Shown one piece after another: positions 7,923 through 32,318 of a DNA stretch of 64,000 nucleotides. How positions within the stretch are numbered: position 1 is the stretch's first letter; each line of letters opens with the position of its first letter. Position numbers and translations under genes: made by a program. Origin of the DNA: Acidimicrobiia bacterium. Lineage in GTDB: Bacteria > Actinomycetota > Acidimicrobiia > Spongiisociales > ZC4RG35. Below the pieces are notes generated by a model. It made no database searches. It was not told the origin of the DNA and worked only from the letters and a program-made list of their open reading frames with translations. The stretch is taken from the NCBI GenBank assembly GCA_046756405.1, contig JBHHWH010000001.1:3133-67132 (forward strand). Reading direction: 5' to 3'.

Positions 7923-9606
7923 CCGCGTCCGGCCGTTCCGCCGCCGTCTCGTGGCCTGGTATGCAGGCATGCTCATCCTGCTCCTGGCGAGCTTCGGCGT
8001 CATGCTCTCCCGCTCTCTGGAGCGGATGCTCCTGGACCAACTCACAGAGTCCCTGGTAGGCGAGGCCAAAGCGGTGAGCCTGGCCCTACCCAGAGAAGAC
8101 TCCGCCCTTCAGGCGTCTGTCATCAACCTGGGCGAGAACCTCAGCATCAGGATCACGGTCATCGCGCCCGACGGGACCGTGCTCGCCGACTCCGACGCCG
8201 ACCCTTCGACCATGGAGAATCACGCCGGCCGCCCTGAGGTCGCTGGGGCTATCTCCGGGGACATCGGCGTAGCTTCCCGTACCAGCGCCACGGTCGGTGA
8301 GGCGCTCCGATACGTGGCGCTTCCGGTTTCCCAGGGCCGGATAGTGAGGGTGGCGGTGGCGGAGACGGACGTTGAAGCCCGGATGGCCTCGCTGCGAAGC
8401 ATATTGGTGGTTGGGGGCGTGATTACCGGCCTGGTCGGATTGGTGGGAATCGACCTGGTGGGTCGTGCGGTGACCCGACCCCTGGAACAGCTCACAAGCG
8501 CGGTGAGTGAGGTTGCGGAGGGTGTCGAAGCGACGACGGCCATCGCCTCGTCGGGAGTAGCGGAGTTGGATCGCTTGGGGGAAGCAGTGAAGCGTCTCGC
8601 CTCGGAGGTGGCCCGCCGGGTAGACCAGCTCAGCCGGGAGCGAGAACTGCGGGATGTGGTCCTTTCGGCCCTAGACGTGGGCGTCGTGCTGGTGGAAGAA
8701 GCAACAGTCGTCTACACCAACCCGGCGGCCCGGGAGATTCTCGGCACCGAACCTGCAAACGTCTCCCAACTTCATCCGGCACTCCTCCAGGAGTTGATTC
8801 GGCTCGCCTCGTCGCAGGACACCGGGGGAAGCGGAGAGTTTGAGACCCCGACCGGTGTCGTCGTGGCCTCGGCTCTGCCGCTCTCCGAGACGGACCAGAT
8901 CCTCCTCACCCTCACCGACGTGACCGAGGCCCGCAGGGCTGACGCCGTTCGCCGCGACTTCGTCTCCGCCGCCTCCCACGAGCTCAAGACCCCTGCGGCG
9001 GCGATCCAGGCCGGAGCTGAGACGGTGATACGGGCCTTGGAGGACGACCCCGAGGCCGCCGACTACTTCGCCCGCAGGATCGAGGCGGACGCCCTGCGGC
9101 TCTCCCGGATCGTGGCGGACCTACTCGACCTGTCCCGATTGGAAACCCAGCACCTCATAAGGGAGCCGGTGGCGCTGGACGGGGTGATCCGGGATGAGGC
9201 GGAGAGGCTGGGCTCGGTACCCGTGGATTTGGCCGTCGACGCCGAGGAGCACCTGGTCGTTGAAGGGAATGCGTCGGACCTGGGCCTTGCCGTGCGCAAC
9301 CTCTTGGACAACGCCGTCCGCTACACCCAAGCGGGAGGCCATGTCCAGGTGAGACTGACCTCCAGTAACGGCGAGGCGATCGTCGAAGTCATCGACAACG
9401 GGGCCGGGATTCCCGCTGCCGACCTGCCTCGCATCTTCGAGCGCTTCTACCGGGTGGACGAGGCCCGCTCCCGCCGCACCGGAGGGACCGGGCTGGGACT
9501 GGCCATCGTCAAGCACGTGGCTGAGCAGCACGGCGGCCGGGTGGAGGCGGAGAGCGTCCTCGGCCAAGGGTCTACGTTCCGCATCATCCTGCCCATTGCG
9601 GAATAA
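7915..9606 (+). CDS. Sensor histidine kinase (PhoR/SenX3-like), partner of the preceding regulator.
   Basis: N-terminal TM helices, the HisKA H-box ASHELKTPAAAI, and HATPase_c N/G boxes (DNAVRYT, DNGAGIP, GGTGLGLAIV). Start overlaps the regulator stop. Confidence 0.85.
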   Translation: MTDRVRPFRRRLVAWYAGMLILLLASFGVMLSRSLERMLLDQLTESLVGEAKAVSLALPREDSALQASVINLGENLSIRITVIAPDGTVLADSDADPSTMENHAGRPEVAGAISGDIGVASRTSATVGEALRYVALPVSQGRIVRVAVAETDVEARMASLRSILVVGGVITGLVGLVGIDLVGRAVTRPLEQLTSAVSEVAEGVEATTAIASSGVAELDRLGEAVKRLASEVARRVDQLSRERELRDVVLSALDVGVVLVEEATVVYTNPAAREILGTEPANVSQLHPALLQELIRLASSQDTGGSGEFETPTGVVVASALPLSETDQILLTLTDVTEARRADAVRRDFVSAASHELKTPAAAIQAGAETVIRALEDDPEAADYFARRIEADALRLSRIVADLLDLSRLETQHLIREPVALDGVIRDEAERLGSVPVDLAVDAEEHLVVEGNASDLGLAVRNLLDNAVRYTQAGGHVQVRLTSSNGEAIVEVIDNGAGIPAADLPRIFERFYRVDEARSRRTGGTGLGLAIVKHVAEQHGGRVEAESVLGQGSTFRIILPIAE

Positions 9607-9634: not shown

Positions 9635-10540
9635 ATGAGCCAGCCCCTCAACGAAGAACGCCCCACCTTGGGACGATTGGACGCGGTCACCACCCGCGAA
9701 GGTGCCGGGTTTCTGGTCCACCGCCCCTTCCCCACCGCCCGCCTCGACCACATCGGGCCTTTCCTGCTGCTCGATGAGATGGGGCCGGTGGACAACGCCC
9801 CCGGGGAGGCCAAGGGAGCGCCGGATCATCCCCACCGCGGCTTCGAGACGGTCACTTATGTCCTCGCCGGGGAGATCGAACACAAGGACTCCCAGGGCAA
9901 CAAGGGCCTGATCACCCCAGGGGACGTGCAGTGGATGACGGCCGGAGCGGGGATCGTCCATTCGGAGATGCCGTCACAGAAGATCCTCAGCCGGGGCGGG
10001 AAGGCCCACGGTTTCCAGTTGTGGGTGAACCTGCCCAAGAAGGCGAAATGGAACCGGCCCCGGTATCAGGACCTCCACGCCGAGGACATGCCGGTGGTGG
10101 AGTTCGATGGCGGGTCGGCGGTGGTGATCGCCGGACACACCCACGGGGCGGACGGTGTGGCCGACACCTACCTACCCATCACCTACTTCCACCTCAAGGT
10201 CTACCCCGAAGAAGAGGTGACCCTGGAGATCGAACCGGACCACCTGGTCTGGATCTACTTCTTTCGGGGTGGTGGGTTGATCGGAGCCAACCGGGTGCCC
10301 TCAGACCGGGGTCAGATAGCGGTCTTCGAGCCCAGAGCCGGAAAGCTCACGCTGATCGGCGGCACCGAGGGCCTGGAGGCGATGGTGGGAAGTTCGCAGC
10401 CCCTCAACGAGCCGGTGGCCCGCTACGGACCCTTCGTGATGAACACCCGGGAGGAGATCATCCAGGCCTTCGAGGACTATCACTCGGGCAAGATGGGCTC
10501 CATCGAACCCGAACTCAGCCCCAGCATGAGGGGGGAGTGA
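9635..10540 (+). CDS. Pirin family protein.
   Basis: Cupin metal-site motif HPHRGFETVTY with downstream conserved E/H residues, and a bicupin-length protein (301 aa). Confidence 0.85.
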   Translation: MSQPLNEERPTLGRLDAVTTREGAGFLVHRPFPTARLDHIGPFLLLDEMGPVDNAPGEAKGAPDHPHRGFETVTYVLAGEIEHKDSQGNKGLITPGDVQWMTAGAGIVHSEMPSQKILSRGGKAHGFQLWVNLPKKAKWNRPRYQDLHAEDMPVVEFDGGSAVVIAGHTHGADGVADTYLPITYFHLKVYPEEEVTLEIEPDHLVWIYFFRGGGLIGANRVPSDRGQIAVFEPRAGKLTLIGGTEGLEAMVGSSQPLNEPVARYGPFVMNTREEIIQAFEDYHSGKMGSIEPELSPSMRGE

Positions 10541-10610
10541 ACGATCCGCCGATAGCCGATACAGCTATCATGTCAACGGTGTCAGGTATCACGTCGGTGG
10601 AGAACAGCAG

Positions 10611-10928
10611 GTGACGGACCGCCAACGCCGAACCTGGACCTTTCTCACCAATCACGCCAGGGTCCTCATCCTCATCGCGCAATCTCCCGGAATTCGGCTG
10701 CGTGACCTCGCAGCACAAATCGGCATCACCGAACGTGCCGCCCAGCGGATCGTCTCCGAGCTGGAGTCGGCCGGATATCTCTCCCACGAAAAGGAGGGGC
10801 GCCGCAACCGCTACCACCTCCACCCCGAGGCCCATCTCCGCCACCCCCTGGAACAGGACATCGAGGTAGGCCAGCTCCTCGATCTGTTCGTCGACCGCTC
10901 ACCGTCGCGACCGATCGACCTCAGCTGA
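10611..10928 (+). CDS. Winged-helix transcriptional regulator (ArsR/MarR-like HTH).
   Basis: 105 aa; helix-turn-helix segment LRDLAAQIGITERAAQRIVSELESAGYL. Confidence 0.55.
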   Translation: MTDRQRRTWTFLTNHARVLILIAQSPGIRLRDLAAQIGITERAAQRIVSELESAGYLSHEKEGRRNRYHLHPEAHLRHPLEQDIEVGQLLDLFVDRSPSRPIDLS

Positions 10929-11005
10929 GGCACGGCGTGACGGTGTAGAGACCACCTCCCGCTCGGCTCCAACGGCGGGCGAGACTCACCGCAGGATCGA
11001 TACGG

Positions 11006-13198
11006 TCAATACCGGCTTTGGCTGGGGAGAGTGACAACGGCCACCGGAATCTGGGTTCTCTCCAGGATGTAGTTGACGCGGTGACCGAAGAAGGGCCGCC
11101 CGGTGACAGCCCTACTCGATGCTCCAATGGCCAGGAGGTCAAAACCGCCCTGGTTGGCGAGGGCGACGATCTCGGCCTCCGGGTTAGCAGCGATCTTCAC
11201 TATTCCCTCCACCGTGGCGCCGAGTCGAGAACCCAATGCGGCCGACTCCGCTACCAGCTCCTGACCGGTGAGCAGCGCATCGTTGGAAGTGAGGGTGTCG
11301 AACATGGCACCGCTACCGGTGGGTCGATTCACGAAGTGAACCGCGGCCGCGCTGCCCGAACTCCCCGCCGCGATAGAGAACCCCAGCTCAGCGGCGGCAC
11401 GCGAGGTTCGGCTGGCTACCACAGGCACCAGCACGCGATTCGGCAAGCCCTCGGCGACCGAAGCTCTTTCGGGAAGTCGCACCACCAAGGTCGGCAGGTC
11501 GACGAGGCTGAGAATCCTGTCGACCACATTTGAGAACACACCCGCCGATCGCCGCTCGTCGGCCGAAGCTCCCACTACCAGTAAGTCGTATCCAAGACGG
11601 GACTCCCTGGCAATGGCGGCCGCCGGATCCGTTGACACCACACGCAACACCCGGTGTCGGATCGAGCCCAGATCTAAATCGACCTGAGTGGGATCGGAGC
11701 TGGAAGCCTTACGGCGCCGGCCCCACATCGAACGGCCAGCAGGCACATCAACGGCGAGGACAGTGACATCCGGGTCTTCGAAGACGCTGGAGATTATCCG
11801 CGCCGCGTACCGACTGTTGGCACCACCCCTCGTAGGCAAGAGTATCCGGCGGCTACCGAGGATCTCCGAAGCCTCCTGCATTGCCTCCCGTTCGAGTCTT
11901 CCTGCCTCCTCAACGGGGATCTCCCAGCCGCTGACCACGGCCCGAAGGAGCTGCGGTGCCAGCAGCGACGTTGCGATCGCGGCCACCACCAGCACCGTGT
12001 ACCCGGTCTGGCTGATCACCGACAGGTTCAGGGCCACCAGGGCGACCACGATGCCCATCGCACCCAGGGCGGAGAGACCAGAGCCGAGGGCCAGAGCCTC
12101 GCGCCCTCGCACACCTCCGAACCGGCCTCCGACAATCGTCCCCGCGAGCTTGGCAGCTACGGCAAGGAAGATCAGACCCACGGCTAACAGGGCGGGGGTA
12201 GGAGAGGCAAGGAGACCGACGTCGACCTGGAGACCGCTGAAGGCGAAGAAAATGGGGGCGAAGATCGCTGCGGTCACAGTCTCCAGAGTTCGGCGGACCT
12301 CGGGTAACTGGTGCCTTGTAGAGGCGAGGAGAATCCCGACCACGAAGGCTCCGAGTATCGCTTCAAGCTGGAGCACCTGGGTAATCCCTGCTCCAATGAG
12401 CGCTGCCACGACGCTAACGGTCAACGCGGCGTTGAGTCCCGATCCGCGATCGAGGATGACCCGCATCACGCGGTCAAGAATCCATCGTCCCGCGGTCGCT
12501 GCCAGCACCAACAGCAGGACCAAGCCACCGAACGAGCGCGCCAGAAGATCTGGTCGGAACCCGTCCAGGGCAACTCCGGTCAAGCCGGCCAGGACCAGCC
12601 AGCCAACAGCGTCCATGGCCATCCCGGCGGCCAGGGTGATCTGACCGAAGTTGCGCCGCAGCAACCCCATGTCCTGAAGGATCTTGGCCACCACCGGTAG
12701 GGCAGAAACGGAGAGGGCCAGGGCGAAGAAACCGACAAACGTCGGACGGTCGCCCAGTTCGCCGACGAAAGAGTCCGGAACCAAGAACGCCACCGCTCCC
12801 ATGGCCGCCAGCGGTACCAGGAAACCCCCCGCCGACACCCAGGCGGTCGCCCTGCGGAACCTGGCGATAATCGCCAGATCTGTCTCGTAGCCGATCACCA
12901 CCAAAAGCAGGATCACACCGATCCAGGCGAGGGCAAATACGATCGATGTCACGACCTCGTCGCCGAAGATCCAGTCGTAGAGATCGGGGGCGGCACGACC
13001 GAGAATGCTCGGTCCGAGAATCACACCCGCTACCAGCTCCCCCACCACCGCCGGCTGGCCGGCTCTTTTCATCAGCCCGCCCAGGGCCCGGGCGATACCG
13101 ATGAGGGCTACTAACTGCACCAGCAGCACCAGGATCTGGTGTTCGCTGAGGGGTGGTGCGGTACCCCCTGAAACCTGTCCGAGGAGGCTCGGATACAT
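11006..13198 (-). CDS. CPA2-family cation/proton antiporter fused to C-terminal universal stress protein (USP) domains.
   Basis: N-terminus QPAVVGELVAGVILGPS and about 12 TM helices typical of Kef/Nha CPA2. The roughly 300-aa C-terminus has tandem USP-like alpha/beta segments (RILLPTRGGANS..., VLVPVVASRTSRAAA...). Confidence 0.8.
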   Translation of the reverse strand: MYPSLLGQVSGGTAPPLSEHQILVLLVQLVALIGIARALGGLMKRAGQPAVVGELVAGVILGPSILGRAAPDLYDWIFGDEVVTSIVFALAWIGVILLLVVIGYETDLAIIARFRRATAWVSAGGFLVPLAAMGAVAFLVPDSFVGELGDRPTFVGFFALALSVSALPVVAKILQDMGLLRRNFGQITLAAGMAMDAVGWLVLAGLTGVALDGFRPDLLARSFGGLVLLLVLAATAGRWILDRVMRVILDRGSGLNAALTVSVVAALIGAGITQVLQLEAILGAFVVGILLASTRHQLPEVRRTLETVTAAIFAPIFFAFSGLQVDVGLLASPTPALLAVGLIFLAVAAKLAGTIVGGRFGGVRGREALALGSGLSALGAMGIVVALVALNLSVISQTGYTVLVVAAIATSLLAPQLLRAVVSGWEIPVEEAGRLEREAMQEASEILGSRRILLPTRGGANSRYAARIISSVFEDPDVTVLAVDVPAGRSMWGRRRKASSSDPTQVDLDLGSIRHRVLRVVSTDPAAAIARESRLGYDLLVVGASADERRSAGVFSNVVDRILSLVDLPTLVVRLPERASVAEGLPNRVLVPVVASRTSRAAAELGFSIAAGSSGSAAAVHFVNRPTGSGAMFDTLTSNDALLTGQELVAESAALGSRLGATVEGIVKIAANPEAEIVALANQGGFDLLAIGASSRAVTGRPFFGHRVNYILERTQIPVAVVTLPSQSRY

Positions 13199-14471: not shown

Positions 14472-15146
14472 TTACGGCTTGTAGTCGTCGGCCTGGTCGG
14501 GGATTGTGGTGTCGGCGCTGTCGGCCTCGTCCGGCAGCACGGTGTCAGGATCGGCCTGGTCCGGTACGACCTCCTCTGGGACGATCTCGGCGTTGTCGTC
14601 GGCAGTGTCCAGACCCTCCGAGGCCTTGCCGTCGGAAGCAGTATCGGCCACGTCCGATCCGAAGTCTTCGCCGGTGGTGGGATCCGAGTTTTCGATCACA
14701 TCGGTCACCGCCTTCGCGACATCGTCGGCGGCGTCGTCGGGTCCCGGTATCTCGACACCGATGAAGTCGAAAGCCTGGGCCGCCCAGGCTTGTGCCGGGT
14801 CGGGCAAGTTGCCGGTGGCAGCGAAACCGCCGGCCGTCGTGGCGAGGGCCACGGAGCCGATCAGCAGCTTCCCGAGGAAGGACGAAAGGATTGTGCTCAG
14901 CATGATGCGTCGCCTCCATCTCATGGGTAGGGGTCTTCCGGCCCGGAACCTGGTCCGGGTCGGGACGCCAGAAGCACGGGTCACCTCGACGGCCAGAGAG
15001 GCCGGGAGACCGGTGTCGTAACCGGTCACCGTCGAGTCCGACAGGGTCCCGAGCAGGTTTGTCACCTGATCATCGAGATCAGGAACGGATTCGCCGGCGA
15101 GAAACCGGTCGATCGTTTCGTCGAGTTGTCGCTTCGAGCGTCTCAA
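14472..15146 (-). CDS. Putative membrane anti-sigma factor with an acidic repeat-containing extracytoplasmic tail.
   Basis: Its start overlaps the stop of the upstream ECF sigma gene by 4 nt. It has an N-terminal cytoplasmic segment of about 80 aa, one TM helix (IMLSTILSSFLGKLLIGSVALATTAGG) and a D/E-rich C-terminus with degenerate PDxAD repeats. No zinc HxxxCxxC motif is present. Confidence 0.5.
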   Translation of the reverse strand: MRRSKRQLDETIDRFLAGESVPDLDDQVTNLLGTLSDSTVTGYDTGLPASLAVEVTRASGVPTRTRFRAGRPLPMRWRRRIMLSTILSSFLGKLLIGSVALATTAGGFAATGNLPDPAQAWAAQAFDFIGVEIPGPDDAADDVAKAVTDVIENSDPTTGEDFGSDVADTASDGKASEGLDTADDNAEIVPEEVVPDQADPDTVLPDEADSADTTIPDQADDYKP

Positions 15147-15823
15147 TTCACCTCCGTTACCGACGGAGACGACGAAATCCCTACGCCTTTGGTGAGATTC
15201 TTTCTCAGACGGCGGATCGCCCGATGCTGTAGCGATTGCACCGCCCCGGGGGTCTTTCCCATGATCGCGGCGATCTCGGTTATACCGAACCCCCCGAGAA
15301 CGCGCAGGACCATGACTTCCCTCTGGTCCCTTGAGAGGGTGGAGAGGATCGCGTCAACCTCCTCTCGGTCGAAGGTCTCCATGGCGGCGGATTCGGCAGA
15401 CTCGACGGGAGTGTCTGCTGCGTCGAGGAACTCGATGGCGGTTGGGTCTTCACGACGCCTTCCCCGCCTGCGGCGCTCGTCAATGATCCGATGGTGAGCG
15501 ATGGTGAACACCCAGGAGCGGAATCCCGAATACTCACCCGAGAAGCGTCCAATGCTGCGAGCCACCTGAAGCCAGATCTCCCCAGCAAGGTCGTCCGGAT
15601 CCGCCGCCCCCTGACGCCGCAGATACCCCCTGAGGACCGGGTCGATCTCGGCCACCAGCAGCTCCCAGGCCCACTCGGCTCCGGCCCGGGCCGCCTCCAG
15701 GACGGCACCGAACACCTCGCTGGACAGCGAGGGTGGAGTCCTGGCCTTGCCGGAGTCGGTCACGGTCACCTGAGTAACCGACGCGACCGGCCCTCTCCTT
15801 ACGGGGTCTCCGGGAGCACCCAC
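15143..15823 (-). CDS. ECF-family RNA polymerase sigma-70 factor.
   Basis: Region 2 (EIWLQVARSIGRF...FRSWVFTIAHHRIID) and region 4 HTH (LSRDQREVMVLRVLGGFGITEIAAIMGKTPGAVQSLQHRAIRRLR). Confidence 0.85.
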   Translation of the reverse strand: MGAPGDPVRRGPVASVTQVTVTDSGKARTPPSLSSEVFGAVLEAARAGAEWAWELLVAEIDPVLRGYLRRQGAADPDDLAGEIWLQVARSIGRFSGEYSGFRSWVFTIAHHRIIDERRRRGRRREDPTAIEFLDAADTPVESAESAAMETFDREEVDAILSTLSRDQREVMVLRVLGGFGITEIAAIMGKTPGAVQSLQHRAIRRLRKNLTKGVGISSSPSVTEVN

Positions 15824-17183: not shown

Positions 17184-18776
17184 CTACTCCGACGATCGAA
17201 TCCCGGCTCGGCTCGGCGACCTGACGGCGTGGAGATCGCAGGCGAACGCCCACCTCTCCCCGTCCCGCTCGAACCGAAGAGCACCTCCCGCGGCAGCAGC
17301 GACGGTGCAGGCATAGCTGATGCCGAGGCGGTCGCCTGCCTCCGGGGGCATCACATCGGGCCGCACCAGAAGACTCCACGTCCTATCGAGGGGGGTCTCC
17401 GAATCGATGTCAGGTCCCGGACCTAGGTCCCACAAGCGAAGACGGACCCCTTCGCCGACCCGCTCGGCGGAAAGGGTGACAGGAGGGGTGCCGTGCTTGA
17501 GCCCGTTATCGATCAGCTCGCTTAGGGCCACAGCAAGAAGTTCCGGTTCACAGCGAACAGTCGAGTCGAGCTCCCCCTCGATCACCAACACCGAGCTCAA
17601 GCCAGGGCGAGCCGGAATCACATGCTCGTCGATCAGCTCCCGGACCGTCACCATCGTCTCCGGCCACTCAGGAGCCCGTTGCAGCCTCAGCATCGAGCTG
17701 ATCCTGTTGAGAAGCCTTTCAATCCGAGCCCCGCCTTCCCGTATGGCCTCAGCAGCCTCTCGCAGCTCCTCGTCCTCCAAGTCCCCTTTGGCTATCAACT
17801 CTGAATAGGCGATGACCGGCGACAGAGGGGTCCTGAACTGGTGGTTGGCCGACTCCAAGAACCGCCGGTGCTGCTCTCCGGCCACCACCTGACTGGTCAC
17901 ATCCTCGGCGTACACCATCAGCATTGGAGGCTCGCTCGCAATCCGATCATGGGACATTCCAATCCGCAGGAACGTCTGGCGACCGTTGGCAGACCTCGTC
18001 ACATAGAGAGAAGGCGACCCCGGGTCTCCCGATGCCCCTACCCGCCGCAGTACTTCTCTCAAGTTCTGTGGGGGTCCATCCGAAGGTGTGGCCTCTGTGA
18101 CCGACGAGAGATCGGGCTCAGTGAGGCCAAAGCGTCGCGCCGTCTCATTGGCAAATAGGCAGCTCAGTGATTCGCAGTCGTACAGGGCGAAACCAATTGA
18201 CGCCTCCTCGGCGATCCGCGCTGCAAGGGTAAGGGCCCGAACTGACTCCTCTTGCCAGTGCTCGGAGAGGGCACGACTCCACAGCAGCAACCCTATGAAG
18301 GCCAGAAAGACGCCCAGCCTGACGACACTCGTGCCGGTCACATCATCGGCCAACGCGATCACTCCCAGATAGGAGACCGTGGCGGCCATCGTGAGTCCGA
18401 TGAGCCTTCGCACCGGACCGGTCACCGTCTCCCAGACGACCACGATCAGCATGGAGAAGAAGAGCGGGCTCTCCGTGCCCCCATCCAGCGCCACCAGAGC
18501 GCCCGCCAGCCCCAGCGACCCCGCTCCTCGAAACATGCATACGTGTCCCCTAAGCCCCGACTTCACCCGTCCAGCAAGAACGTTCAAACTCGCTCGCCAC
18601 GCCCACAGAGCCCCGGCTACCACCAGTACGCCGACGGGCCGCAGCACGTCACCGAACACGACGAGCGCCAGGACATGCATGGAGACGATCGGTCCGACAG
18701 GATCAAACCGCTCGATCCACGACTGCCAGCGGGGTCTTCGGGCTTCGATAATCGAAAAGCGACCCTCTGGATGCAT
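17184..18776 (-). CDS. Membrane-associated sensor histidine kinase (orphan; no adjacent response regulator).
   Basis: Several N-terminal TM helices and a PAS-like linker. HisKA H-box NHQFRTPLSPV and HATPase_c boxes (LIDNGLKHG, DLGPGPD). Start chosen at the ATG at 18776 (MHPEGRF...), because the further upstream ORF translation is Arg/Pro-rich junk. Confidence 0.8.
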   Translation of the reverse strand: MHPEGRFSIIEARRPRWQSWIERFDPVGPIVSMHVLALVVFGDVLRPVGVLVVAGALWAWRASLNVLAGRVKSGLRGHVCMFRGAGSLGLAGALVALDGGTESPLFFSMLIVVVWETVTGPVRRLIGLTMAATVSYLGVIALADDVTGTSVVRLGVFLAFIGLLLWSRALSEHWQEESVRALTLAARIAEEASIGFALYDCESLSCLFANETARRFGLTEPDLSSVTEATPSDGPPQNLREVLRRVGASGDPGSPSLYVTRSANGRQTFLRIGMSHDRIASEPPMLMVYAEDVTSQVVAGEQHRRFLESANHQFRTPLSPVIAYSELIAKGDLEDEELREAAEAIREGGARIERLLNRISSMLRLQRAPEWPETMVTVRELIDEHVIPARPGLSSVLVIEGELDSTVRCEPELLAVALSELIDNGLKHGTPPVTLSAERVGEGVRLRLWDLGPGPDIDSETPLDRTWSLLVRPDVMPPEAGDRLGISYACTVAAAAGGALRFERDGERWAFACDLHAVRSPSRAGIRSSE

Positions 18777-18983
18777 CTTCGTTACCCCACTTGCCGCCAA
18801 AACCAGATGACCGGCGACTCCGAGACGCGCCAGGCCCGGCCTCCCCCGTCGGCGACGCCGGCTCCACCTTCCTGGCACGCCGGCCGCCGACGGGTTCGGT
18901 CGGACAGGACACCCCTCCTCGCGGTCGCCCGGAGAAAGCTGGAGACCCATGCCTGCCCTTCGCCCGCGCCACCGGGATTCGGG

Positions 18984-19076
18984 TCAGCTCATGTCGCTGA
19001 TGGAAGCGAGGGCGGGAAGAGCGACTGAAAGTGCGCTGGCAAGAGCAAGCACAAACACGGTGACACGGCGTCGCAT
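18984..19076 (-). CDS. Candidate 30-aa small membrane peptide (MRRRVTVFVLALASALSVALPALASISDMS).
   Basis: ATG preceded by a canonical SD AAGGAGGTG at 7-nt spacing. The peptide has an Arg-rich N-terminus and one hydrophobic helix. It lies between the large SARP regulator and the orphan histidine kinase on the same strand. Confidence 0.3.
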   Translation of the reverse strand: MRRRVTVFVLALASALSVALPALASISDMS

Positions 19077-19177
19077 TGGGGCACCTCCTTGAGTCCGGCT
19101 GTTTTTCACAGCCGAGTATGCGGAGACCCCGTCTCCCAGATGTCTCACATTTCAGGGCGGACCGCCAAGACCTTCCG

Positions 19178-22100
19178 TCACGAGGCCCGATATCTGGTCC
19201 CCCGGGTGGCGAGGCGGCAACCAGCCTCGCGCAGCGCCTTCAAGTCGCGTCCCACCGTCGAGGCACTCACCCCTAGTGCCTCGGCGAGCTGTTCGATCGA
19301 GGGCAGTGCCCCCTGGTTACGGGCTTCGGTCACGAGCCTCTGCAGTCGGCGGCGCCGCCGCTCCACGGGCGACGGAATCTCCTCGTCATCGGGGTGGGCA
19401 ACGGTCCAGATGACATGCACCAGCTCGCCGGCGGCGAGGGGTCGACCCAGGGGGCTTCCCATCGCGGGCAGCATCACCTCGATCTGTCGGGGTGAGACCC
19501 GCTTCCAGGTCTCGACGATCTCAGCATGCTCTGGGACTCGCTCCAGCGCCTTCGCTCGCTCGTCGTCCGTAAGCCCTTCCAGGGTGGCAAGGAGTAAGCG
19601 GTGGGCCTTCTCGGCAGCACGCCGGGCTTCCTTGACCTCACCGGCCGCCGCGGCGGCGACGGAATGCCGGTGGTGTACCAGATGGGCACGCTCGACCCCC
19701 GGCACGAGCTGGTCGACTGCTTGGCGGGCAGTGGCGAGGGCGGTGTCTACGTCTCCGATGGCCAACAGGACTGCCCCGCGGATAGAGAGCAGCTCCACGC
19801 CCAGGGAAGCTTGAGCGGTCTCCCGGCACACGACATCAGCTTGGTCGAGGACGGCCAGGGCCTCCTGGTGCCTTCCTGAGCCCAGATACAACAAGGCCAG
19901 GGAACGAAGGTGCTGACCCTCGAGGGAACGGTTGCCGCTCCCGCGAAGCTTGTCCAGGCTCTCGGCGAGGAGTTGGCCTGCTTCGTCGTTCCGACCCTCG
20001 AGGAGGGCTGCCCCGGCCAGGATCTCCAAGCATTGGGCCTCTCGGGCGGGATCACCGATGCTCACGAATTGGTTCATCGCCCGCCGTGCATCGGCTCGGG
20101 CCCGTTCAGCGTCGCCGAGGAGGCTGAGACGGACCGATGCTGCGTTGACAAGCACCATCGATTCACCGCGACGGTCGCCGAGATCGGAGAAGACGTGCGC
20201 CGCCTGCCCATAGCTGGAGAGGGCCTCCGCTACCTGACCCATGTAGTAGTGGAGGTTGGCTTGGTTCACCAGATTTACACCCTCGCCATGGCGATAGCCG
20301 ATCTTCCGGCAGATCTCGATAGCAGTCCCGTAGCGGGCCAGCGATCCCGAGGCGTCGCCCAGCTGGCGAAGGGCGCGCGCCTCGATGCCCAAAACCTCTG
20401 CTTCACCGCGGAGATCGTCGAGTTCCCCGAAGAGAGAACGCGCACCGGTCAGATGCGGAAGCGCATCGGTGCACCGCTGCACTTCGACCAGAGTGCTACC
20501 CAACTCGGTGTGGGCCTGAGCTCGTATCTGATCGTCGTCGGCTGCTGAAGCCACCGCCGCTTCCAACTGGGATACCGCACGCAGGGGGTGCCCCGACCAG
20601 CGCAGACAGGTACCCAATGCCACCAGGGCCGCCGCCAACGCACCTTGGTCACCCCGGAGACGCTCCACCTCCACGGCGTGGCGAGCCGCCTCTTCGGCCT
20701 CGGCGAAACGGCCCAAATGAGCAAGGAACCAAGCCCTTCGCCGTTCGAGATCGCCCTCCAAAGCGGGGTTGGTCTCGACGAGGGTCATCATCTCCTCAAT
20801 CACCTCGCCCTGTTCGCTGCGAAGGCCCAACACGTCAAGGACGAACTCCAGGTGGCCAGCCACTCGGTATCGTTCCTCCGGCGCCCACATCGCCCGCGTT
20901 GCTGCCAGATGGGCTGCCCGGAAGTGCTGGCGGGCGGTCGCAAAGGCGTGAAGCTCCTCGGCCCGGAGGCCCGCATCGAGTAGGAACCGAGCTGCCCGCT
21001 CAGGGATCCCGCCCTCCCAATAGTGGTGGCCCAGGGCCGCCACATCTTCTGAGCTGATTTCGACCAATGCCTCCGCCACCCGGCGATGCAACTCGGTGCG
21101 GAGACCCTCCTCGAGACCCTCGTAGACGACCTGGCGTACTAGGTCGTGGGCTATCCGATAGAGGCCAGGACCCGCCTCTTCGAGGAGCCCACGATGAACG
21201 AGATCCTCGACGGCATCCAGCAGCGAAACCCGGGGGGATCCACTGACCGTCTCCAGTACTGCCAGGTCGGCGACACCACCGCACACCACGGCGACCTCGA
21301 AAACTGCTCGGGCGTCTTGGCCGAGCAGTGAGACGCGAGAGTCGACGACCGACCTCACCCGGGGGGCGACCGGGACCCTTCGGCCGGCGAACTCCTTCTC
21401 GAGAACTTCGCCTGGATCACCACCGGTCTCGAATAGACCCTGGTCACGGAGGGTCAGCAACGTCTCCAACGTGAATAAGACGTTCCCGCCGGTCTGGCGG
21501 TGCAGGCGGACTGCCACCGTCGGATCCAAGTTGGTCAAGCCCAGGATGGTCTTGACCATGTCGCCAAGCTCGAAAACGGACAAAGGCGAGAGCACGACTC
21601 TCCCCAGGCCTGCAACACGGTCCAGATCGCGGAGGAGGTCCCACACCTCCATGTCACTTCGACCTTCCTCGCTCCTGTAGAGCAGGAGCAGCAGGACGCG
21701 CGAACCGGGAAGCCGAGAGCCGAGCTGGGCGAGCACACCGAGTGTGTCCCGGTCGACCCAATGCACATCATCGAGAATCACCAGATGCGGGGCGATCCGG
21801 CCCAAGGCTCCGATCGTGGTGACGAGCGCCTCCTGCATCCGCGTCGACTCCTCCGCCGGACGCAGCGGGGTCGATCGAGAAGACGCTGGCTGCCGTCCCC
21901 CGAGGAAGGGGGCGAGTCGCATGGCCTCTCCAAGCCAGACCGGCTCGAGTTCCTCGGCGAGCTGCTCAGCCCTGAGAGGGCTGATTGACTCCAATACCTC
22001 AGCCAGCGGACCGAAGGGGCGAACGGTCCCCTCATCGCAAGTACCCCAACTGACTTCGAATCCACGCCAGCGGGCGGCGTCTGCCGCCTCCAGGGCCAGC

Positions 22101-23074
22101 CGGGTCTTGCCGATGCCGGGTTCCCCCTCCACCAGCACCACGCCGCCATGGCCGGCGAGCACCCGCTCCATGGCGCTGACGATGGTGCGCCGCTCCTCTT
22201 CTCGCCCGACAAAGGGAGTGCCGGACCGAGCACCCAACACGGAGGCGCGTTCCTCACCGCCCAGCGGCCGGATCGCGGCTCGCCGCTGCTTGAGGATTCG
22301 CCGGTACAGATCCACAGTGGGCTGGGAGGGCTCGGCACCCAGCTCCTCGGCCAGCACCGACCTGCACCGTTCGAACTGCTGCACCGCTTCGCTGGTACGC
22401 CCCAGAAGAAAGCAGAGCCGCATGACCTCCTGGTGTGCTTCTTCGCGAAGGGGATCGTGGTGGGTGAGCCGTCGAGCGTGGGCCAGAGCCTCTTCGTAGT
22501 CACCGTGGGCTTTGGTCACTTCAACGAGACGGCTCAGAGCCGCAAGGTAGCGCTGTCGGTAATGGTCCTGTTCGACGGTCACCCAGTCGTCGAAGAACCC
22601 TGCAAGGAAGTCGCCTCGATACAGCTCAACACAGGTACGCAGGGCCGCGGCGTCTCCGGAGCGGCTCAGGACGGAGTCACGCCGTGATATCTGGAGAGAC
22701 TCAAAGATCACATCGAATTCCTCGACGTCCAGCCAGTAGGGGACCGAAGTGTCGAAGCTGAGAGTGTCCGCCGTGGTCACCAAATGTGCCTCTTGATCGC
22801 CGCCCACCGTGTCCTGTATCTGCCACAGAGTGTGGCTGAGCCGACGCCGCGCCCGCCCCTCAGGAAGATCGGGCCAGAACAGACCGGCGAGGAAGTCTCT
22901 TTGTAGAGGTCGGCCCCGGTGCATTGCGAGATAGGCGAATAGCGATCTCCCAGAACGTGAGGCAATCGGCGCCAACGGCCTGCCCCCGCGTTCCAAGAAG
23001 AAGCCACCGAATAGGTATACCCGCAGCGGATCCATGACATCCATCCTGGCCGTCGGCCGAGCCGGGCCCAGCAC
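19178..23074 (-). CDS. Large multidomain transcriptional regulator: N-terminal SARP/BTAD (OmpR-type winged helix), P-loop NB-ARC/AAA ATPase, TPR repeats, and a C-terminal DeoR-like HTH.
   Basis: N-terminus LRVYLFGGF...LFAYLAMHRG...YRGDFL (SARP, AfsR/DnrI-like). Walker A GEPGIGKTRLALEAA, and a long TPR-like alpha-helical region. The C-terminal segment PSIEQLAEALGVSASTVGRDLKALREAG is HTH-like. GTG start. My hand indexing near the start codon was off by 1 nt. Confidence 0.8.
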   Translation of the reverse strand: MLGPARPTARMDVMDPLRVYLFGGFFLERGGRPLAPIASRSGRSLFAYLAMHRGRPLQRDFLAGLFWPDLPEGRARRRLSHTLWQIQDTVGGDQEAHLVTTADTLSFDTSVPYWLDVEEFDVIFESLQISRRDSVLSRSGDAAALRTCVELYRGDFLAGFFDDWVTVEQDHYRQRYLAALSRLVEVTKAHGDYEEALAHARRLTHHDPLREEAHQEVMRLCFLLGRTSEAVQQFERCRSVLAEELGAEPSQPTVDLYRRILKQRRAAIRPLGGEERASVLGARSGTPFVGREEERRTIVSAMERVLAGHGGVVLVEGEPGIGKTRLALEAADAARWRGFEVSWGTCDEGTVRPFGPLAEVLESISPLRAEQLAEELEPVWLGEAMRLAPFLGGRQPASSRSTPLRPAEESTRMQEALVTTIGALGRIAPHLVILDDVHWVDRDTLGVLAQLGSRLPGSRVLLLLLYRSEEGRSDMEVWDLLRDLDRVAGLGRVVLSPLSVFELGDMVKTILGLTNLDPTVAVRLHRQTGGNVLFTLETLLTLRDQGLFETGGDPGEVLEKEFAGRRVPVAPRVRSVVDSRVSLLGQDARAVFEVAVVCGGVADLAVLETVSGSPRVSLLDAVEDLVHRGLLEEAGPGLYRIAHDLVRQVVYEGLEEGLRTELHRRVAEALVEISSEDVAALGHHYWEGGIPERAARFLLDAGLRAEELHAFATARQHFRAAHLAATRAMWAPEERYRVAGHLEFVLDVLGLRSEQGEVIEEMMTLVETNPALEGDLERRRAWFLAHLGRFAEAEEAARHAVEVERLRGDQGALAAALVALGTCLRWSGHPLRAVSQLEAAVASAADDDQIRAQAHTELGSTLVEVQRCTDALPHLTGARSLFGELDDLRGEAEVLGIEARALRQLGDASGSLARYGTAIEICRKIGYRHGEGVNLVNQANLHYYMGQVAEALSSYGQAAHVFSDLGDRRGESMVLVNAASVRLSLLGDAERARADARRAMNQFVSIGDPAREAQCLEILAGAALLEGRNDEAGQLLAESLDKLRGSGNRSLEGQHLRSLALLYLGSGRHQEALAVLDQADVVCRETAQASLGVELLSIRGAVLLAIGDVDTALATARQAVDQLVPGVERAHLVHHRHSVAAAAAGEVKEARRAAEKAHRLLLATLEGLTDDERAKALERVPEHAEIVETWKRVSPRQIEVMLPAMGSPLGRPLAAGELVHVIWTVAHPDDEEIPSPVERRRRRLQRLVTEARNQGALPSIEQLAEALGVSASTVGRDLKALREAGCRLATRGTRYRAS

Positions 23075-24090: not shown

Positions 24091-24594
24091 TCAACGCTTC
24101 CAATCACGCCAGTCGCGCCACGTAGGTTCGGAACAGCTCCCCGGCCTCGGGGTCGGCGATGGAAGCAAGGAGCGCCGCGGCGTCATCTCTCGGGTCGAAC
24201 ACACCGGGATCCAGAAACGGGCATCCTCTGCGGCGACACGGAGATCACAGGCGGCAGCCAGCACCACCGCACCACCAACGCAGTGCCCTCGAATGGAGGC
24301 CACGGTGATTTGGGGCAACGCGGCCAGGGAGTCGGCGGCCACTCGACCCAAGTCGGCGGTCTCATCGGGCGTCGATTCGAACTCTTCTGCGAAGGCAGGC
24401 AGGTCGGCACCCGCCGAGAAGTTGGGTCCGGAGCCCTCCAGGACTACCACCCCCACCTGGTCCTCGGCGTTCAGGCTGGTACACACTGCAATCAACTCGC
24501 GAAGGAGATCAGGCGAGAGGGCGTTTAGCTTGTCGGGTCGGTTCAACATGACCCGGGCAACCCGTCCTTCCACGTTGAACTCAACCAGGGACAT
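24091..24594 (-). pseudogene. Truncated enoyl-CoA hydratase/isomerase (crotonase) remnant.
   Basis: The first roughly 135 aa are crotonase-like (VARVMLNRPDKLNAL...NFSAGADL...IRGHCVGGAVVLAAACDLRVAAEDARF). The frame then runs into non-protein-like sequence, and only about 150 nt remain before the next gene, so the C-terminal half of the fold is missing. Compare the intact paralogue at 28781-29572. Confidence 0.5.
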
Positions 24595-29582: not shown

Positions 29583-32318
29583 CTAGACGGCTGGTGCCGG
29601 CCGGGCGGCGGGAAGGTCTCGCATCGCCGGTTGACGTTCCGGGGGGAGGGGTTCGATGCGCATCCTGGCATCCACCACGCTCACTCCTCGCCCGGGTTCG
29701 AGCACCTTGACCGGGTTGAGGTCCATCTCCGCCAACTCAGGCACTTCGGCGATCAGCGCCGATACCCGACACAGGGTCTCTACCAGGGCGTCGACGTCGC
29801 CCTTCGGCTGGTTGCGATAACCCTCCAACAGCTTCGACCCCCGGGTTTCGGCGATCATCTCGGCGGCGTCGGTGTTGGTGATGGGATGGGCGCGGAAGGC
29901 GACATCTCCCAACAGCTCCACGTAGATGCCGCCCAACCCGTACACGACCAGGGGACCGAAGTTGGGATCGAGGGTCATCCCGATCAGGGCCTCGTGTCCA
30001 CCTTCGACGAACTCCTGGACCAGCACCCCTTCAGCGTCTTCCACCGCCGAGATGACCCGCTGGTAGGCATCCGCCACCGCCTGGTCGCCCTCTACGCCGA
30101 TTACCACCCCACCTACATCTGACTTGTGCGTGGCCGCAACGGAGATCACCTTCAGCACTACAGGGCCGCCGATCTCTCCAGCCGCGGCCACTGCCTCCTC
30201 CGGACTGTGAGCAACCCGGGAAATAGGCCTGCGGAGTCCGGCGGAGGCCAGGATCTCTTCCACTTCCGCCGGCTCCAACCATCCCCCCGCTTCTCCGAGA
30301 CGCTCCAGGGCCTGGTCCACTACCCGACGGATCACTTCTACGGCCTCGGGGTCGAGTCGCCGCTCCTCGCCGGGATCCCGCCGCCGCCAGCGCCCATAGC
30401 GGACCGCCCGGGCCAGGGCCAGGGCGGCGTCCTCGGGAAAGACGTAGGTAGGAATGGAACGGGCCTTCCCTTCCCCTGCCAGAGCTTGAGCAGCCTCACC
30501 GCTCATGAAGACCGACAGCAGGGTCACCGGACCGTCGTATCTGGCCTGACAGTCCCGCAGCACAGCAGCAACCGCGTCGGAGCCTTCGGGCGAGGTAGGG
30601 ACGTAGATGACCATCACCGAATCCACCTCGTCCGAGCGGAGAAGGAGATCCGTGGCGTGACGAAACTCGTCGGGACCTCCCGAGGCAATCAGATCCACCG
30701 GGTTGGCGATGGACGCCTCTGCGGGCAAGGCGGCGCCGATGGCCTCGCCGAGGGCGGGAGACAAGGAAGGCAGCACCAGCCCGCTGGCCTCCAGAGCGTC
30801 GGCGGCCAGGATCCCCGGACCGCCGGCGTTGGTCACGATCCCCACCCGGACACCCCGGGGCACCGGCTGGTTGGCGAGCAGGTTGGCGGCGCCGAACAGC
30901 TCCTCGATGGTGTCCACCCTGATGACTCCTGCCTGACGGAACACGGCATCCACCGCTACGTCCGAGGAGGCCAGGGCCCCCGTATGCGACGATGCCGCCC
31001 GGCTCCCTGCCTGGGTACGGCCGGCCTTCACCGCCACGATGGGCTTGCGGCGACCGATACGCCGGGCGATGCGACTGAACTTACGCGGAGCGCCAAAGGA
31101 CTCCAGGTAGAGGGTGATCACGTCGGTCTGGGGATCGTCCTCCCAGGCGAGAAGCAGATCGTTGCCGCTGACGTCGGCCTTGTTCCCCACGGAGACGAAC
31201 TGAGAGATGCCGATGTTGTTGCGGCTGGCGTAGTCAAGGATCGCCACACCGAGGGCACCGGACTGGCTGGACATCGCTACGTTGCCTGCCGGGGGGTAGA
31301 TCGGTGAGAAGGTGCCGTTGAGTCGTACCGAAGGAGCGGTGTTGATCAGCCCCATGCAGTTGGGTCCCACCATGCGCATCCCGTACCGGCGCACGATATC
31401 GACCAGCTCAGCCTCCCGAGCCACCCCCTCCTCACCCACCTCGGAGAAGCCGGCGGAGATGACCACGATGCCTCGAACTCCCGCCTCGCCGCACTGGCGG
31501 GCCACCTCGAGGACAGACCCCTGGGGGATGACGATGAAGGCCAGGTCGACCTGGTCGGGAACGTCACCGATGGTGGGGTAGGCCCGTACCGACCGCACCA
31601 CCGGAGAGCGCGGGTTGACCGGGTAGAGGGGCCCGGTGAAGCCCGAGCTCAGCAGATTGCCGAAGAGCTTACCGCCGATGGAGTCGGGGTCGTTGGAGGC
31701 GCCGATGACCGCCACCGCCCGGGGGAAGAAGAGGGGTAGCACCGAAGCCGCCACCGCCCGCCGCTCCCGCTCCGCTTCAGCGGCCACGGCCCTCTCCGAG
31801 GGCTCAACAGGGAAGTCGACGGAATACACGCCTTCCTCCACGGTGCGGTGAAGCTCGTAGCCCGAGTTGCGGAAGACCCGCATCATCTGCCGGTTCTCGG
31901 CCAGGACATAGGCCTTGAACCGCTCGATCCCCTGGTCGCGGGCGTAGGTGGTGAGCAGTTCCAGGAGTTTCGTGCCCAGGCCCCGCCCCTGATGGTCGTC
32001 GGCCACTGCGAAGGCCACCTCGGCTACGAGAGAGTCGGGATCCTCCCGGTCGTAACGGCCCACGGCAACGATCTCCCCTTCGATCTCGGCTACCAGGGCC
32101 ATACGGTCCTCGTAGTCGACGTTGGTGAAGTGGGCCACTTCCCCGGGGTCGAGGGAATGTTTGATCCGGAAGAAACGGAAGTATCGGGACTGGGGGCCGA
32201 GACGCTCGAAGAAGGAGACGATGCCGTCTGCGTCGGTGGGGCGGATGGGACGGACCCGGGCGCCGCCTCCGTCACGGAGGACCACGTCGAGCTGGTACGC
32301 GGAGGGGTATTCGGCCAT
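29583..32318 (-). CDS. Bifunctional protein: N-terminal GNAT acetyltransferase fused to an ADP-forming acyl-CoA synthetase (CoA-binding, succinyl-CoA-synthetase-like and ATP-grasp domains); Pat/PatZ-like protein lysine acyltransferase.
   Basis: The N-terminal roughly 190 aa is GNAT (VADDHQGRGLGTKLLE). It is followed by CoA-binding AVIGASNDPDSIGGKLF, the ligase-CoA domain, and a C-terminal ATP-grasp (VVLKVISVAATHKSDVGGVVIGVEG). 911 aa. Confidence 0.8.
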   Translation of the reverse strand: MAEYPSAYQLDVVLRDGGGARVRPIRPTDADGIVSFFERLGPQSRYFRFFRIKHSLDPGEVAHFTNVDYEDRMALVAEIEGEIVAVGRYDREDPDSLVAEVAFAVADDHQGRGLGTKLLELLTTYARDQGIERFKAYVLAENRQMMRVFRNSGYELHRTVEEGVYSVDFPVEPSERAVAAEAERERRAVAASVLPLFFPRAVAVIGASNDPDSIGGKLFGNLLSSGFTGPLYPVNPRSPVVRSVRAYPTIGDVPDQVDLAFIVIPQGSVLEVARQCGEAGVRGIVVISAGFSEVGEEGVAREAELVDIVRRYGMRMVGPNCMGLINTAPSVRLNGTFSPIYPPAGNVAMSSQSGALGVAILDYASRNNIGISQFVSVGNKADVSGNDLLLAWEDDPQTDVITLYLESFGAPRKFSRIARRIGRRKPIVAVKAGRTQAGSRAASSHTGALASSDVAVDAVFRQAGVIRVDTIEELFGAANLLANQPVPRGVRVGIVTNAGGPGILAADALEASGLVLPSLSPALGEAIGAALPAEASIANPVDLIASGGPDEFRHATDLLLRSDEVDSVMVIYVPTSPEGSDAVAAVLRDCQARYDGPVTLLSVFMSGEAAQALAGEGKARSIPTYVFPEDAALALARAVRYGRWRRRDPGEERRLDPEAVEVIRRVVDQALERLGEAGGWLEPAEVEEILASAGLRRPISRVAHSPEEAVAAAGEIGGPVVLKVISVAATHKSDVGGVVIGVEGDQAVADAYQRVISAVEDAEGVLVQEFVEGGHEALIGMTLDPNFGPLVVYGLGGIYVELLGDVAFRAHPITNTDAAEMIAETRGSKLLEGYRNQPKGDVDALVETLCRVSALIAEVPELAEMDLNPVKVLEPGRGVSVVDARMRIEPLPPERQPAMRDLPAARPAPAV

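Follow-up and report, generated by a model that had tools for sequence, protein, structure and literature searches.

The locus described here raises a simple question: what does a very large transcription factor, apparently equipped to hold DNA at both of its ends, control, and to what does it respond? The gene lies on the reverse strand of a stretch of 64,000 nucleotides (hereafter the window) from contig JBHHWH010000001.1 of an Acidimicrobiia bacterium, and its product unites, in this order, a SARP winged helix with a BTAD domain, a STAND ATPase, about 12 pairs of TPR helices and a beta-hairpin followed by a helix-turn-helix (HTH) of the HTH_11/DeoR type. An earlier note, made from the sequence alone, had suggested that this AfsR-like regulator may form a signalling unit with a small peptide gene and an orphan histidine kinase gene downstream of it. 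We find that the cassette is a conserved two-gene unit around an AfsR-like STAND activator, to which a histidine kinase has been added in the lineage of the window, and we hold it somewhat more probable than otherwise that the regulator activates the adjacent gene of a secreted peptide and that the pair is a signalling module.

The peptide gene is found about 100 nt 3' of the regulator gene, on the same strand (the gap ranges from 58 to 291 nt over the loci), and in the window encodes a pre-peptide of sequence MRRRVTVFVLALASALSVALPALASISDMS. Peptide open reading frames (ORFs) were counted in 65 non-duplicate loci with a fixed rule, which asked for a length of 27-36 aa, two or more K/R among residues 1-6, a core free of charges, a small-x-small pattern and a tail of 4-9 residues. 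By this rule 54 of the 65 loci carry such a frame within 330 nt of the regulator stop, and two more, which have an acidic residue in the c-region, were recognised by eye, so that a peptide ORF of 29-34 aa is present in 56/65. In 1.71 Mb of DNA elsewhere the rule gave 16 matches, which corresponds to 0.003 per 330 nt. Nearly all the loci have a GGAGG-type site 6-10 nt before the peptide start codon.

The assignment of the peptide to the unit is strongly supported. The same cannot be said of the kinase, which only about 25 of 53 loci have directly downstream and whose N-termini follow three designs (soluble, with 2-4 transmembrane (TM) segments, or with 4-5, the last being the type of the window). 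Where it is missing, the next gene encodes LigD, a LacI or HAD protein, or a trypsin-like or S8 protease. On these two grounds, its absence from about half of the loci and the diversity of its N-termini, we rejected the kinase as an obligatory third partner. The outer neighbours of the cassette in the window are unrelated housekeeping genes; two relatives with 67% and 54% identity, both distant, have wholly different flanks, but again the 30-aa ORF and a kinase. Because what flanks the cassette changes from locus to locus, regulator and peptide alone form a stable association; of the three genes between 17184 and 23074, whose joint occurrence in other genomes had been proposed as a check, these two are the constant pair and the kinase is optional.

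The region between the two genes suggests how they are connected. In an alignment of the spacers of 14 close relatives, the element TGACGGAAGGT is followed by about 22 variable bases, by TGAGACA-N4-(G/A)GAGACG, by about 8 bases and the hexamer CATA(G/C)T, and then by about 35 bases, GGAGGT and the ATG (19076 in the window). The operator of the window, 19115-19147(-), reads TGAGACA-N4-GGAGACG-N8/9-CATACT. The exact string GAGAC-N6-GAGAC has a single occurrence in the 64-kb window, at the peptide promoter; with at most one mismatch it is found no more than 130 nt before the peptide in 41/54 loci, against 0.006 expected, and the strict box with a -10-like hexamer 10 nt on has 24 matches in the loci, every one of them (24/24) at the peptide promoter. 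This geometry agrees with the published rule for SARP operators, namely heptamer repeats with 4-nt spacers, the 3' repeat lying 8 bp from the -10 (PMC10936776; PMC5930380). A scan for a sigma-70 consensus promoter at the peptide gene found none, and no -35 consensus, as expected for an activator-dependent promoter; on the gene strand there is also neither a sigma-70 promoter nor an intrinsic terminator between regulator, peptide and kinase. In the clades with variant repeats (TAGATA/GAGAGAT), or with none, the recognition helix of the winged helix ends in ...LSQALWQxxT, versus ...LSHTLWQIQD. A search for an autoregulatory box found neither the GAGAC box nor the distal element upstream of the regulator itself. 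By analogy with AfsR and its target afsS, two SARP heads would bind the GAGAC repeats in place of a -35 and recruit RNA polymerase, and the regulator would in this way switch on the peptide gene and, in the window, the co-transcribed kinase. This is the step of the mechanism in which we have good confidence.

The element at the far end of the spacer follows the consensus TGA(G)CG(C/G)AAGGT. It stands 34-36 nt, or three helical turns, before the first GAGAC in 26 of the 28 loci with a detectable copy and 24-25 nt before it, one helical turn less, in the other two; 25 matches fall in this zone versus 7 in the remaining 1.48 Mb, and 4 of those 7 adjoin the zone. One clade of Nitriliruptoria has TGAYCACCYAG at the same 35-nt offset instead, with SARP helix and GAGAC repeats unchanged, and in its regulators the C-terminal module shows a two-residue deletion, D-E-R in place of R-R-R, and A-T-V-H-D-L. 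As element and C-terminal module change together and the SARP parts stay constant, the comparison favours the C-terminal HTH as the candidate reader of the distal element, although this covariation is confounded by clade structure. Against this, the element could be a third SARP site, because it shares TGAG with the box at about 33 nt, that is, three 11-bp steps. It is thus only tentatively that we propose a C-terminal HTH that reads the distal element and would thereby hold the oligomer to the peptide promoter at a second point.

The surroundings of these elements hold two smaller features. A short hairpin, CGGCTG...CAGCCG, is predicted at 19096-19114(-), where the peptide mRNA would begin; in many close relatives a hairpin of other sequence was seen by eye in the same place of the 5' untranslated region, RNAalifold on the relatives gave no consensus hairpin there, and an Rfam search of the intergenic region found no RNA family at E <= 1. 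Upstream of the regulator gene, GGTAGCGTT is found 5-8 nt before the ATG in loci L001, L007, L009, L013, L015, L018, L025 and others, where it could be the -10 hexamer of a leaderless transcript; the motif is absent upstream of the regulator of the window.

If the peptide gene is the target, we may ask what its product is. The peptides share one anatomy: M-RRR, a hydrophobic core, P-A-x-A and then a clade-specific tail of 5-8 residues, which is SISDMS in the window. In the 50 loci compared, position -1 is Ala in 50/50, position -3 is Ala in 45 and Val in 5, position -4 is Pro in 46 and position -6 is Ala in 41, and the succession of n-, h- and c-regions together with the -1/-3 rule holds for 50/50 peptides. 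Such a pattern at -1 and -3 is the classical signal-peptidase-I site. The product is accordingly predicted to be a Sec-type signal peptide whose cut by signal peptidase I leaves a hexapeptide; it would be exported and cut after P-A-L-A, and SISDMS would be freed outside the cell, a course of events that we consider fairly probable.

Most tails measure 6 residues (34 of the 50 loci) or 7 (14 loci), with a single one of 5 and a single one of 8, and 39 of them are distinct. They fall into families: S-[IVL]-S-[DEQN]-M-S in the clade of the window, x-x-x-N-[MIV]-x (GLDNMRP, AVVNMR, SVVNMHG, GIKNMGL), I-[LW]-[RK]-P-G-H-x and G-T-[AT]-Y-M-[IG]. The peptide of Egicoccus halophilus, a cultured organism (locus L087, regulator P0170), is MSRLKARLTTVALLATTAVLSASPAFA followed by GIKNMGL. 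Where the regulators are 60-90% identical, the identity of the tails is 0.75 versus 0.59 for the hydrophobic core (h-region); where the regulators are less than 50% identical, tail identity is 0.12-0.21 and that of the cleavage c-region 0.62-0.66. Conservation of this kind suits a mature peptide that has a function and changes from lineage to lineage; a mere membrane anchor would not be expected to show it. Two paralogous regulator-peptide cassettes occur in one metagenome-assembled genome, CAXMOO01 (L045 and L054), with predicted mature tails AVVNMR and DIAHMP, respectively; their promoter repeats also differ.

An anchor is nevertheless what the first alternative proposes. The 30-aa product would remain uncleaved as a single-pass membrane peptide (N-in) and would act as an effector or modulator, for example of the kinase, like MgrB or SafA, being a functional analogue of AfsS as the small target of the regulator, and the TPR array would sense an unrelated metabolite or protein. 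An uncharged stretch of about 20 residues is enough to span the membrane, the SARP box on the promoter says 'target gene' and nothing beyond, and the pair AfsR-afsS offers the precedent of a large SARP that acts mainly on the small ORF just downstream of its own gene. In Nitriliruptoria, moreover, peptide and kinase genes overlap at stop and start, and these kinases, which have 2-4 TM helices but no large extracellular part, are of the kind that typically relies on membrane partners. However, an anchor needs neither Ala at -1 (50/50) nor Ala/Val at -3 (50/50) nor Pro at -4 (46/50), and it does not call for a tail that is better conserved than the core within clades and yet switches between clades; the kinase, in turn, is missing from about half of the loci and is soluble in the close clade. 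We regard this alternative as rather unlikely. Two further ideas were rejected: a leader peptide or upstream ORF for the following gene, because the downstream genes differ from locus to locus, and a precursor of a ribosomally synthesised and post-translationally modified peptide (RiPP), because no conserved modifying enzyme lies nearby.

The next question is whether the regulator is one genuine protein. The ORF of 1298 codons, counted from GTG 23074 and extending to 19178 on the reverse strand, is intact and as previously described, including the quoted motifs GEPGIGKTRLALEAA and PSIEQLAEALGVSASTVGRDLKALREAG. Its length needs a correction: the database call of a 100% identical protein, P0001, has 1285 aa and begins at ATG 23035, which is M14 of the long ORF, and an equivalent M-E/D-P-L-R opens every regulator homologue, so that the true start is probably this ATG, 13 codons inside the GTG frame. 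A fusion of two genes, a frameshift or a chance ORF, the first two of which had been named as what would refute a single protein, is practically out of the question, given the identical 1285-aa protein on an independent contig, more than 120 full-length colinear homologues, 918 representatives of the C-terminal module and a continuous AlphaFold2 (AF2) model; no evidence favouring a frameshift, an assembly fusion or a chance ORF was found.

The domain order proposed in the earlier note is borne out by Pfam (BTAD, AAA_16, TPR_12, HTH_11) and by alignment to AfsR and EmbR; the domain positions from Pfam are given here in the numbering of the 1298-residue frame. In a phmmer search against solved structures, residues 15-324 resemble the DNA-binding and BTA domains of AfsR (8k60, E 1e-11) and residues 14-273 those of EmbR (2fez, E 2e-8). 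The first 112 residues have no Pfam match at all, Trans_reg_C included. Because Trans_reg_C stays silent though AfsR and EmbR align, the SARP head predicted here is real but divergent; its recognition helix, RARRRLSHTLWQIQD, is nearly invariant among the homologues. The BTAD domain covers residues 141-261 (PF03704, 87.7 bits, cut-off 22.1, E 1e-24) and AAA_16 residues 287-462 (82.6 bits, E 6e-23). The ATPase motifs, all of them invariant or nearly so in 15 homologues with 44-100% identity, are a Walker A GEPGIGKT, a Walker B LVILDD, TGGN.LF and H-D; G-x-P-G-x-G-K-T, D-D and H630 are invariant, the residue after H630 being D or, in some of them, E. An HD switch is known for AfsR-like proteins (preprint 10.64898/2026.09.02.748808). 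TPR_12 gives four matches (74 bits); TPR_MalT is weak (24 bits, below its cut-off of 45).

The C-terminal HTH passes the Pfam gathering cut-offs of three profiles, HTH_11 (29.7 bits, cut-off 25), HTH_DeoR (25.1, cut-off 21) and DUF1670 (31.9, cut-off 25), as the earlier proposal of a DeoR-like HTH would have it; when the last 114 aa are scanned alone the scores become 33.1, 29.2 and 38.0 bits, the DUF1670 match spanning profile positions 51-142 of 220 only. By these profiles the domain is closest to the HTH_11/DeoR type. No Pfam match to GerE/LuxR or to DeoRC was obtained in the regulator, so that the likeness to DeoR is confined to the C-terminally placed HTH; membership of the DeoR family was rejected, since the HTH alone matches (25-29 bits), it is C-terminal and DeoRC is missing. 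The beta-hairpin/HTH module occupies about 100 residues beyond the TPR array, which therefore is not the last domain. The hairpin contains a conserved loop A-P-T-G-R-P-L, the HTH is followed by a disordered tail with an invariant T-R-G that runs up to the stop codon (19178-19180), and in the AF2 model the TPR superhelix (pLDDT 95) is continuous into the HTH.

We then evaluated how widespread this architecture is. More than 120 homologues of the regulator, with 96-100% coverage, 1241-1329 aa and 42-100% identity, come nearly all from metagenome-assembled Acidimicrobiia. When one genome per species was scanned, 151 genomes had a relative, and 80 of these were kept (Acidimicrobiia, Nitriliruptorales and a few bins with other labels). 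The 114-residue C-terminal module, used as a query, retrieved 918 representative proteins at 50% clustering, 512 of them at E <= 1e-10. It stands at the extreme C-terminus in every match, and since the matches are either full-length proteins of 1181-1351 aa or short ones that resemble fragments at contig edges, the module appears essentially restricted to this regulator family. A second DNA-binding domain at this end, which had been called atypical, is indeed absent from characterised AfsR, but it is unusual only in comparison with the studied Streptomyces proteins and is the rule in a family of 918 representatives. Members were found in both Acidimicrobiia and Nitriliruptoria. The automatic names given by JGI join 'SARP family activator' with 'biotin operon repressor' or 'ArsR family', so that both DNA-binding parts are already named there; literature searches (DUF1670; SARP and peptide signalling; Actinomycetota peptide quorum sensing) retrieved no description of the family or of the cassette.

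The closest studied relative is AfsR of Streptomyces coelicolor, with which the regulator has in common the OmpR-type winged helix and BTA domain, the NOD with its HD switch, a C-terminal TPR sensor, the likely binding of 11-bp-phased direct repeats that replace the -35, and a main local target in the small ORF that adjoins the regulator gene on its 3' side. By its score against the NCBIfam AfsR equivalog (NF053617), 88.7 bits and thus far below the cut-off of 1430, it is not an AfsR orthologue. It is about 300 residues longer, owing to a longer TPR array and the beta-hairpin/HTH, whereas AfsR ends in the TPR domain at Arg993 without a C-terminal HTH (PMC10936776). The promoter also differs, with GAGAC repeats instead of the afs box and with a second, distal element, and no Ser/Thr kinase is linked to the locus. 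The small target differs as well: here it is a 30-aa Sec pre-peptide, while AfsS is reportedly a cytoplasmic protein of 63 aa.

Large SARPs with a C-terminal HTH are named SARP-LAL in the literature (PimR, SanG, PolR), where accounts of this HTH are inconsistent: a 2026 preprint describes the group as LuxR-bearing and TPR-less, and PimR, the archetype, is without a C-terminal HTH (PMC5930380). Common to these proteins and to ours is a large SARP with an ATPase; the sites of SARP-LAL proteins are likewise heptamers in direct repeat, 4 nt apart, in the promoter of one adjacent target gene, where a main operator is joined by a secondary one (PMC5930380). As the regulator has a TPR array and its HTH is HTH_11/DeoR-like rather than LuxR/GerE, it is not a SARP-LAL; moreover, the operator of PimR lies upstream of the -35, while the SARP box here overlaps the -35 position. 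MalT and the LAL proteins likewise combine a STAND ATPase, a helical-repeat sensor and a C-terminal DNA-binding domain, but the HTH of MalT is of the LuxR type, and a SARP domain is missing from its N-terminus.

The part of the question that concerns the signal leads to the RRNPP(A) pairs (PlcR-PapR, NprR-NprX, Rap-Phr, AimR-AimP), in which, as appears to be the case here, a receptor with TPR and HTH lies beside the gene of a small Sec-exported pro-peptide, the mature peptide is a C-terminal stretch of 5-8 residues that varies between lineages (predicted in our case), and the receptor probably activates the peptide gene, leading to autoinduction. Of the five traits of the RRNPP signature (PMC10075063) a small peptide, a TPR receptor and adjacency are found and Sec-type export is predicted from the anatomy, which makes four; the fifth, a receptor of 250-500 aa, is not, since the regulator has 1285. 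It also differs in having a STAND ATPase and a SARP head, with no sequence similarity or special likeness of fold, in occurring in Actinomycetota instead of Bacillota and their phages, and in a mature peptide that is predicted to need no enzyme but signal peptidase, there being no pro-region to remove. On this analogy, the freed peptide would be a cell-to-cell signal that is re-imported, binds the TPR array and lifts the autoinhibition of the NOD, closing a positive feedback loop: an RRNPP-like quorum sensing on another receptor chassis, which we put forward as a possibility with odds below even. The TPR array is the most variable domain of the regulator (mean pairwise identity 0.36-0.38 versus 0.51 for the SARP head) and its divergence tracks that of the tails best (rho 0.52, partial coefficient 0.35, TPR-B highest); its best Foldseek matches are the peptide-binding superhelices LGN/Pins, OGT and APPBP2.

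Several points weigh against this picture and against its premises. The correlation between TPR and tails is weak and confounded by phylogeny, with the SARP head close behind (rho 0.49). The fold search gives generic TPR matches, with no special likeness to RRNPP receptors, and the size of the protein is well outside their range. No peptide importer is linked to the cassette. The predicted cleavage rests on the -1/-3 rule, and the 20-residue uncharged stretch could also be a membrane anchor. Between 7 and 9 loci, including all the bins labelled Chloroflexota, have no visible peptide: in L034, L047, L081 and L084 (Anaerolineae/Chloroflexota bins) and in L040, L042 and L072 neither the peptide ORF nor the GAGAC box was found in the available downstream DNA, although these seven loci retain a full-length regulator with its C-terminal module; loss, relocation or a different partner may account for them. 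Finally, where the kinases are membrane-bound, the kinase could be the peptide sensor.

This last point, if generalised, becomes a second alternative, in which signalling would be of the Agr/Com two-component type: the downstream kinase would sense the secreted peptide outside the cell, and the regulator would only control the production of peptide and kinase. The co-oriented kinase right after the peptide in about 25/53 loci, with a gap of 33 nt and no terminator in the window, speaks for it, as do the polytopic N-termini with short loops of the kinases of the window, of L086 (a locus with 75% relatedness) and of Nitriliruptoria. In the close clade (L001, L003 and others), however, the kinases, of about 340 aa, have no TM segment, and about half of the loci have unrelated downstream genes; together, these kinase-less loci and soluble kinases argue against the kinase as receptor as a general mechanism. 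No response regulator is linked, and three unrelated types of kinase N-terminus stand against a single family of peptides. We consider this alternative improbable. As called, the kinase ORF of the window has 588 aa, the first 58 codons or so being Arg-rich and of low complexity; since the L086 orthologue (522 aa) starts at the equivalent of residue ~67, the real start is probably M59 (ATG 18776).

A third alternative, that the protein belongs to the antiphage STAND systems, had been mentioned in the earlier note and set aside there in favour of a transcriptional role, rightly as far as we can judge. The TPR array of an Avs-like protein would recognise a phage protein, the HTH and SARP parts being effector or regulatory additions; the core of NOD and TPR is common to Avs-type defence proteins, and a weak BrxC_BrxD match was obtained (E 0.007, below the Pfam cut-off). 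Nevertheless, PADLOC returned no STAND/Avs model, just generic TPR and weak HTH-type ones, the Pfam scan no nuclease, protease or other killing domain, and no relative is found in viral contigs. The regulator usually occurs once per genome, in two classes, with constant length and with housekeeping rather than defence neighbours, and a SARP box lies on the neighbouring promoter. A defence function thus seems very unlikely.

Taken as a whole, the reading that we propose is that an NLR-like STAND ATPase with SARP output would be the cytoplasmic receptor of a self-made, Sec-exported hexa- or heptapeptide, used for communication among Actinomycetota (Acidimicrobiia, Nitriliruptoria), with signal peptidase as the sole processing step, 'pherotype' tails read by the fast-evolving TPR array and the C-terminal HTH clamping the oligomer distally; with all its parts together, it must be considered speculative, if plausible. 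The data suggest a type of peptide signalling that has yet to be described in Actinomycetota. Peptide pheromones with cytoplasmic TPR receptors are seen as a hallmark of Bacillota, Actinomycetota being said to use small molecules (PMC10075063), and the signals to which AfsR-type NLR-like regulators respond are still reported as unknown (preprint 10.64898/2026.09.02.748808). As a receptor-like large SARP here adjoins a tiny secreted-peptide gene apparently under its DNA-binding head, both questions become directly testable, and cultured Egicoccus halophilus carries the cassette. If the proposal is true, the peptide would be the first ligand of any AfsR-type regulator that is itself encoded by a gene, and the regulator would represent a class of quorum-sensing receptors unrelated to RRNPP, Agr and LuxR. 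The receptor filter of RRNPP_detector (250-500 aa) would by itself drop the regulator, whatever the phylum. The paired cis elements offer a defined model for the way in which a STAND oligomer that has DNA-binding domains of two kinds engages a single promoter.

Table 1. Features of the regulator-peptide cassette and of the adjoining kinase gene, in positions of the window.
Feature	Positions	Strand	Basis or remark
Regulator coding sequence	19178..23035	-	1285 aa from ATG 23035; >120 colinear homologues
N-terminal OmpR/SARP-type winged-helix DNA-binding domain	22730..23035	-	Alignment to 8k60, 2fez; invariant columns
BTAD (bacterial transcriptional activation) domain	22292..22654	-	Pfam PF03704, E 1.2e-24
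STAND/NOD ATPase (AAA_16)	21110..22237	-	Pfam PF13191, E 5.9e-23
TPR-like superhelix, ~12 helix pairs, presumed sensor	19496..20857	-	TPR_12 x4; AF2 model
C-terminal module: beta-hairpin, Arg-rich helix, three-helix HTH	19226..19489	-	
Distal conserved element TGACGGAAGGT	19170..19180	-	TGA = regulator stop codon; 34 nt before first GAGAC
SARP box TGAGACA-TCTG-GGAGACG, direct repeats, 11-bp period	19130..19147	-	
GAGAC repeats	19146..19142 and 19135..19131	-	
-10-like hexamer CATACT	19115..19120	-	10 nt after second GAGAC, 8 nt after heptamer GAGACGG
Shine-Dalgarno AAGGAGGT of peptide gene	19083..19090	-	GGAGG-type
Pre-peptide gene, 30 aa, MRRRVTVFVLALASALSVALPALA/SISDMS (slash: predicted cut)	18984..19076	-	ORF, Shine-Dalgarno and -1/-3 residues
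Histidine kinase (HisKA + HATPase_c), ~4 predicted TM segments	17184..18950	-	Pfam; starts 33 nt after peptide stop

Some observations on the neighbourhood may be added. At locus L087 of Egicoccus halophilus (10206-12275) the peptide is followed not by a kinase but by a secreted-type subtilase (Peptidase_S8 with He_PIG Ig-like repeats), which could be an output or a processing enzyme. In the window, about 10 kb from the regulator, a complete cluster for phosphate uptake and its control (2805-9606(+)) encodes a PstS-like binding protein, two permeases, a PstB ATPase and PhoU, together with an OmpR-type response regulator and a sensor kinase (Cache-like, HAMP, HisKA, HATPase_c); in Streptomyces, AfsR and PhoP compete for shared promoters (PMC10936776). 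An ECF-type sigma factor (Sigma70_r2/r4) at 14472-15823(-) is followed by an ORF of 224 aa that overlaps it by 4 nt, has no Pfam match and is possibly its anti-sigma factor. The enoyl-CoA hydratase ORF at 24091-24594(-), of 167 aa, matches positions 4-123 of 251 of the ECH_1 profile only; the gene may be truncated or split, and the same short gene is called on an independent contig (L005). Ordinary large ORFs, finally, are those of a GNAT plus ADP-forming acyl-CoA synthetase-like protein of Pat-type architecture (29583-32318(-)) and of Mfd/TRCF (38131-41487(-)).

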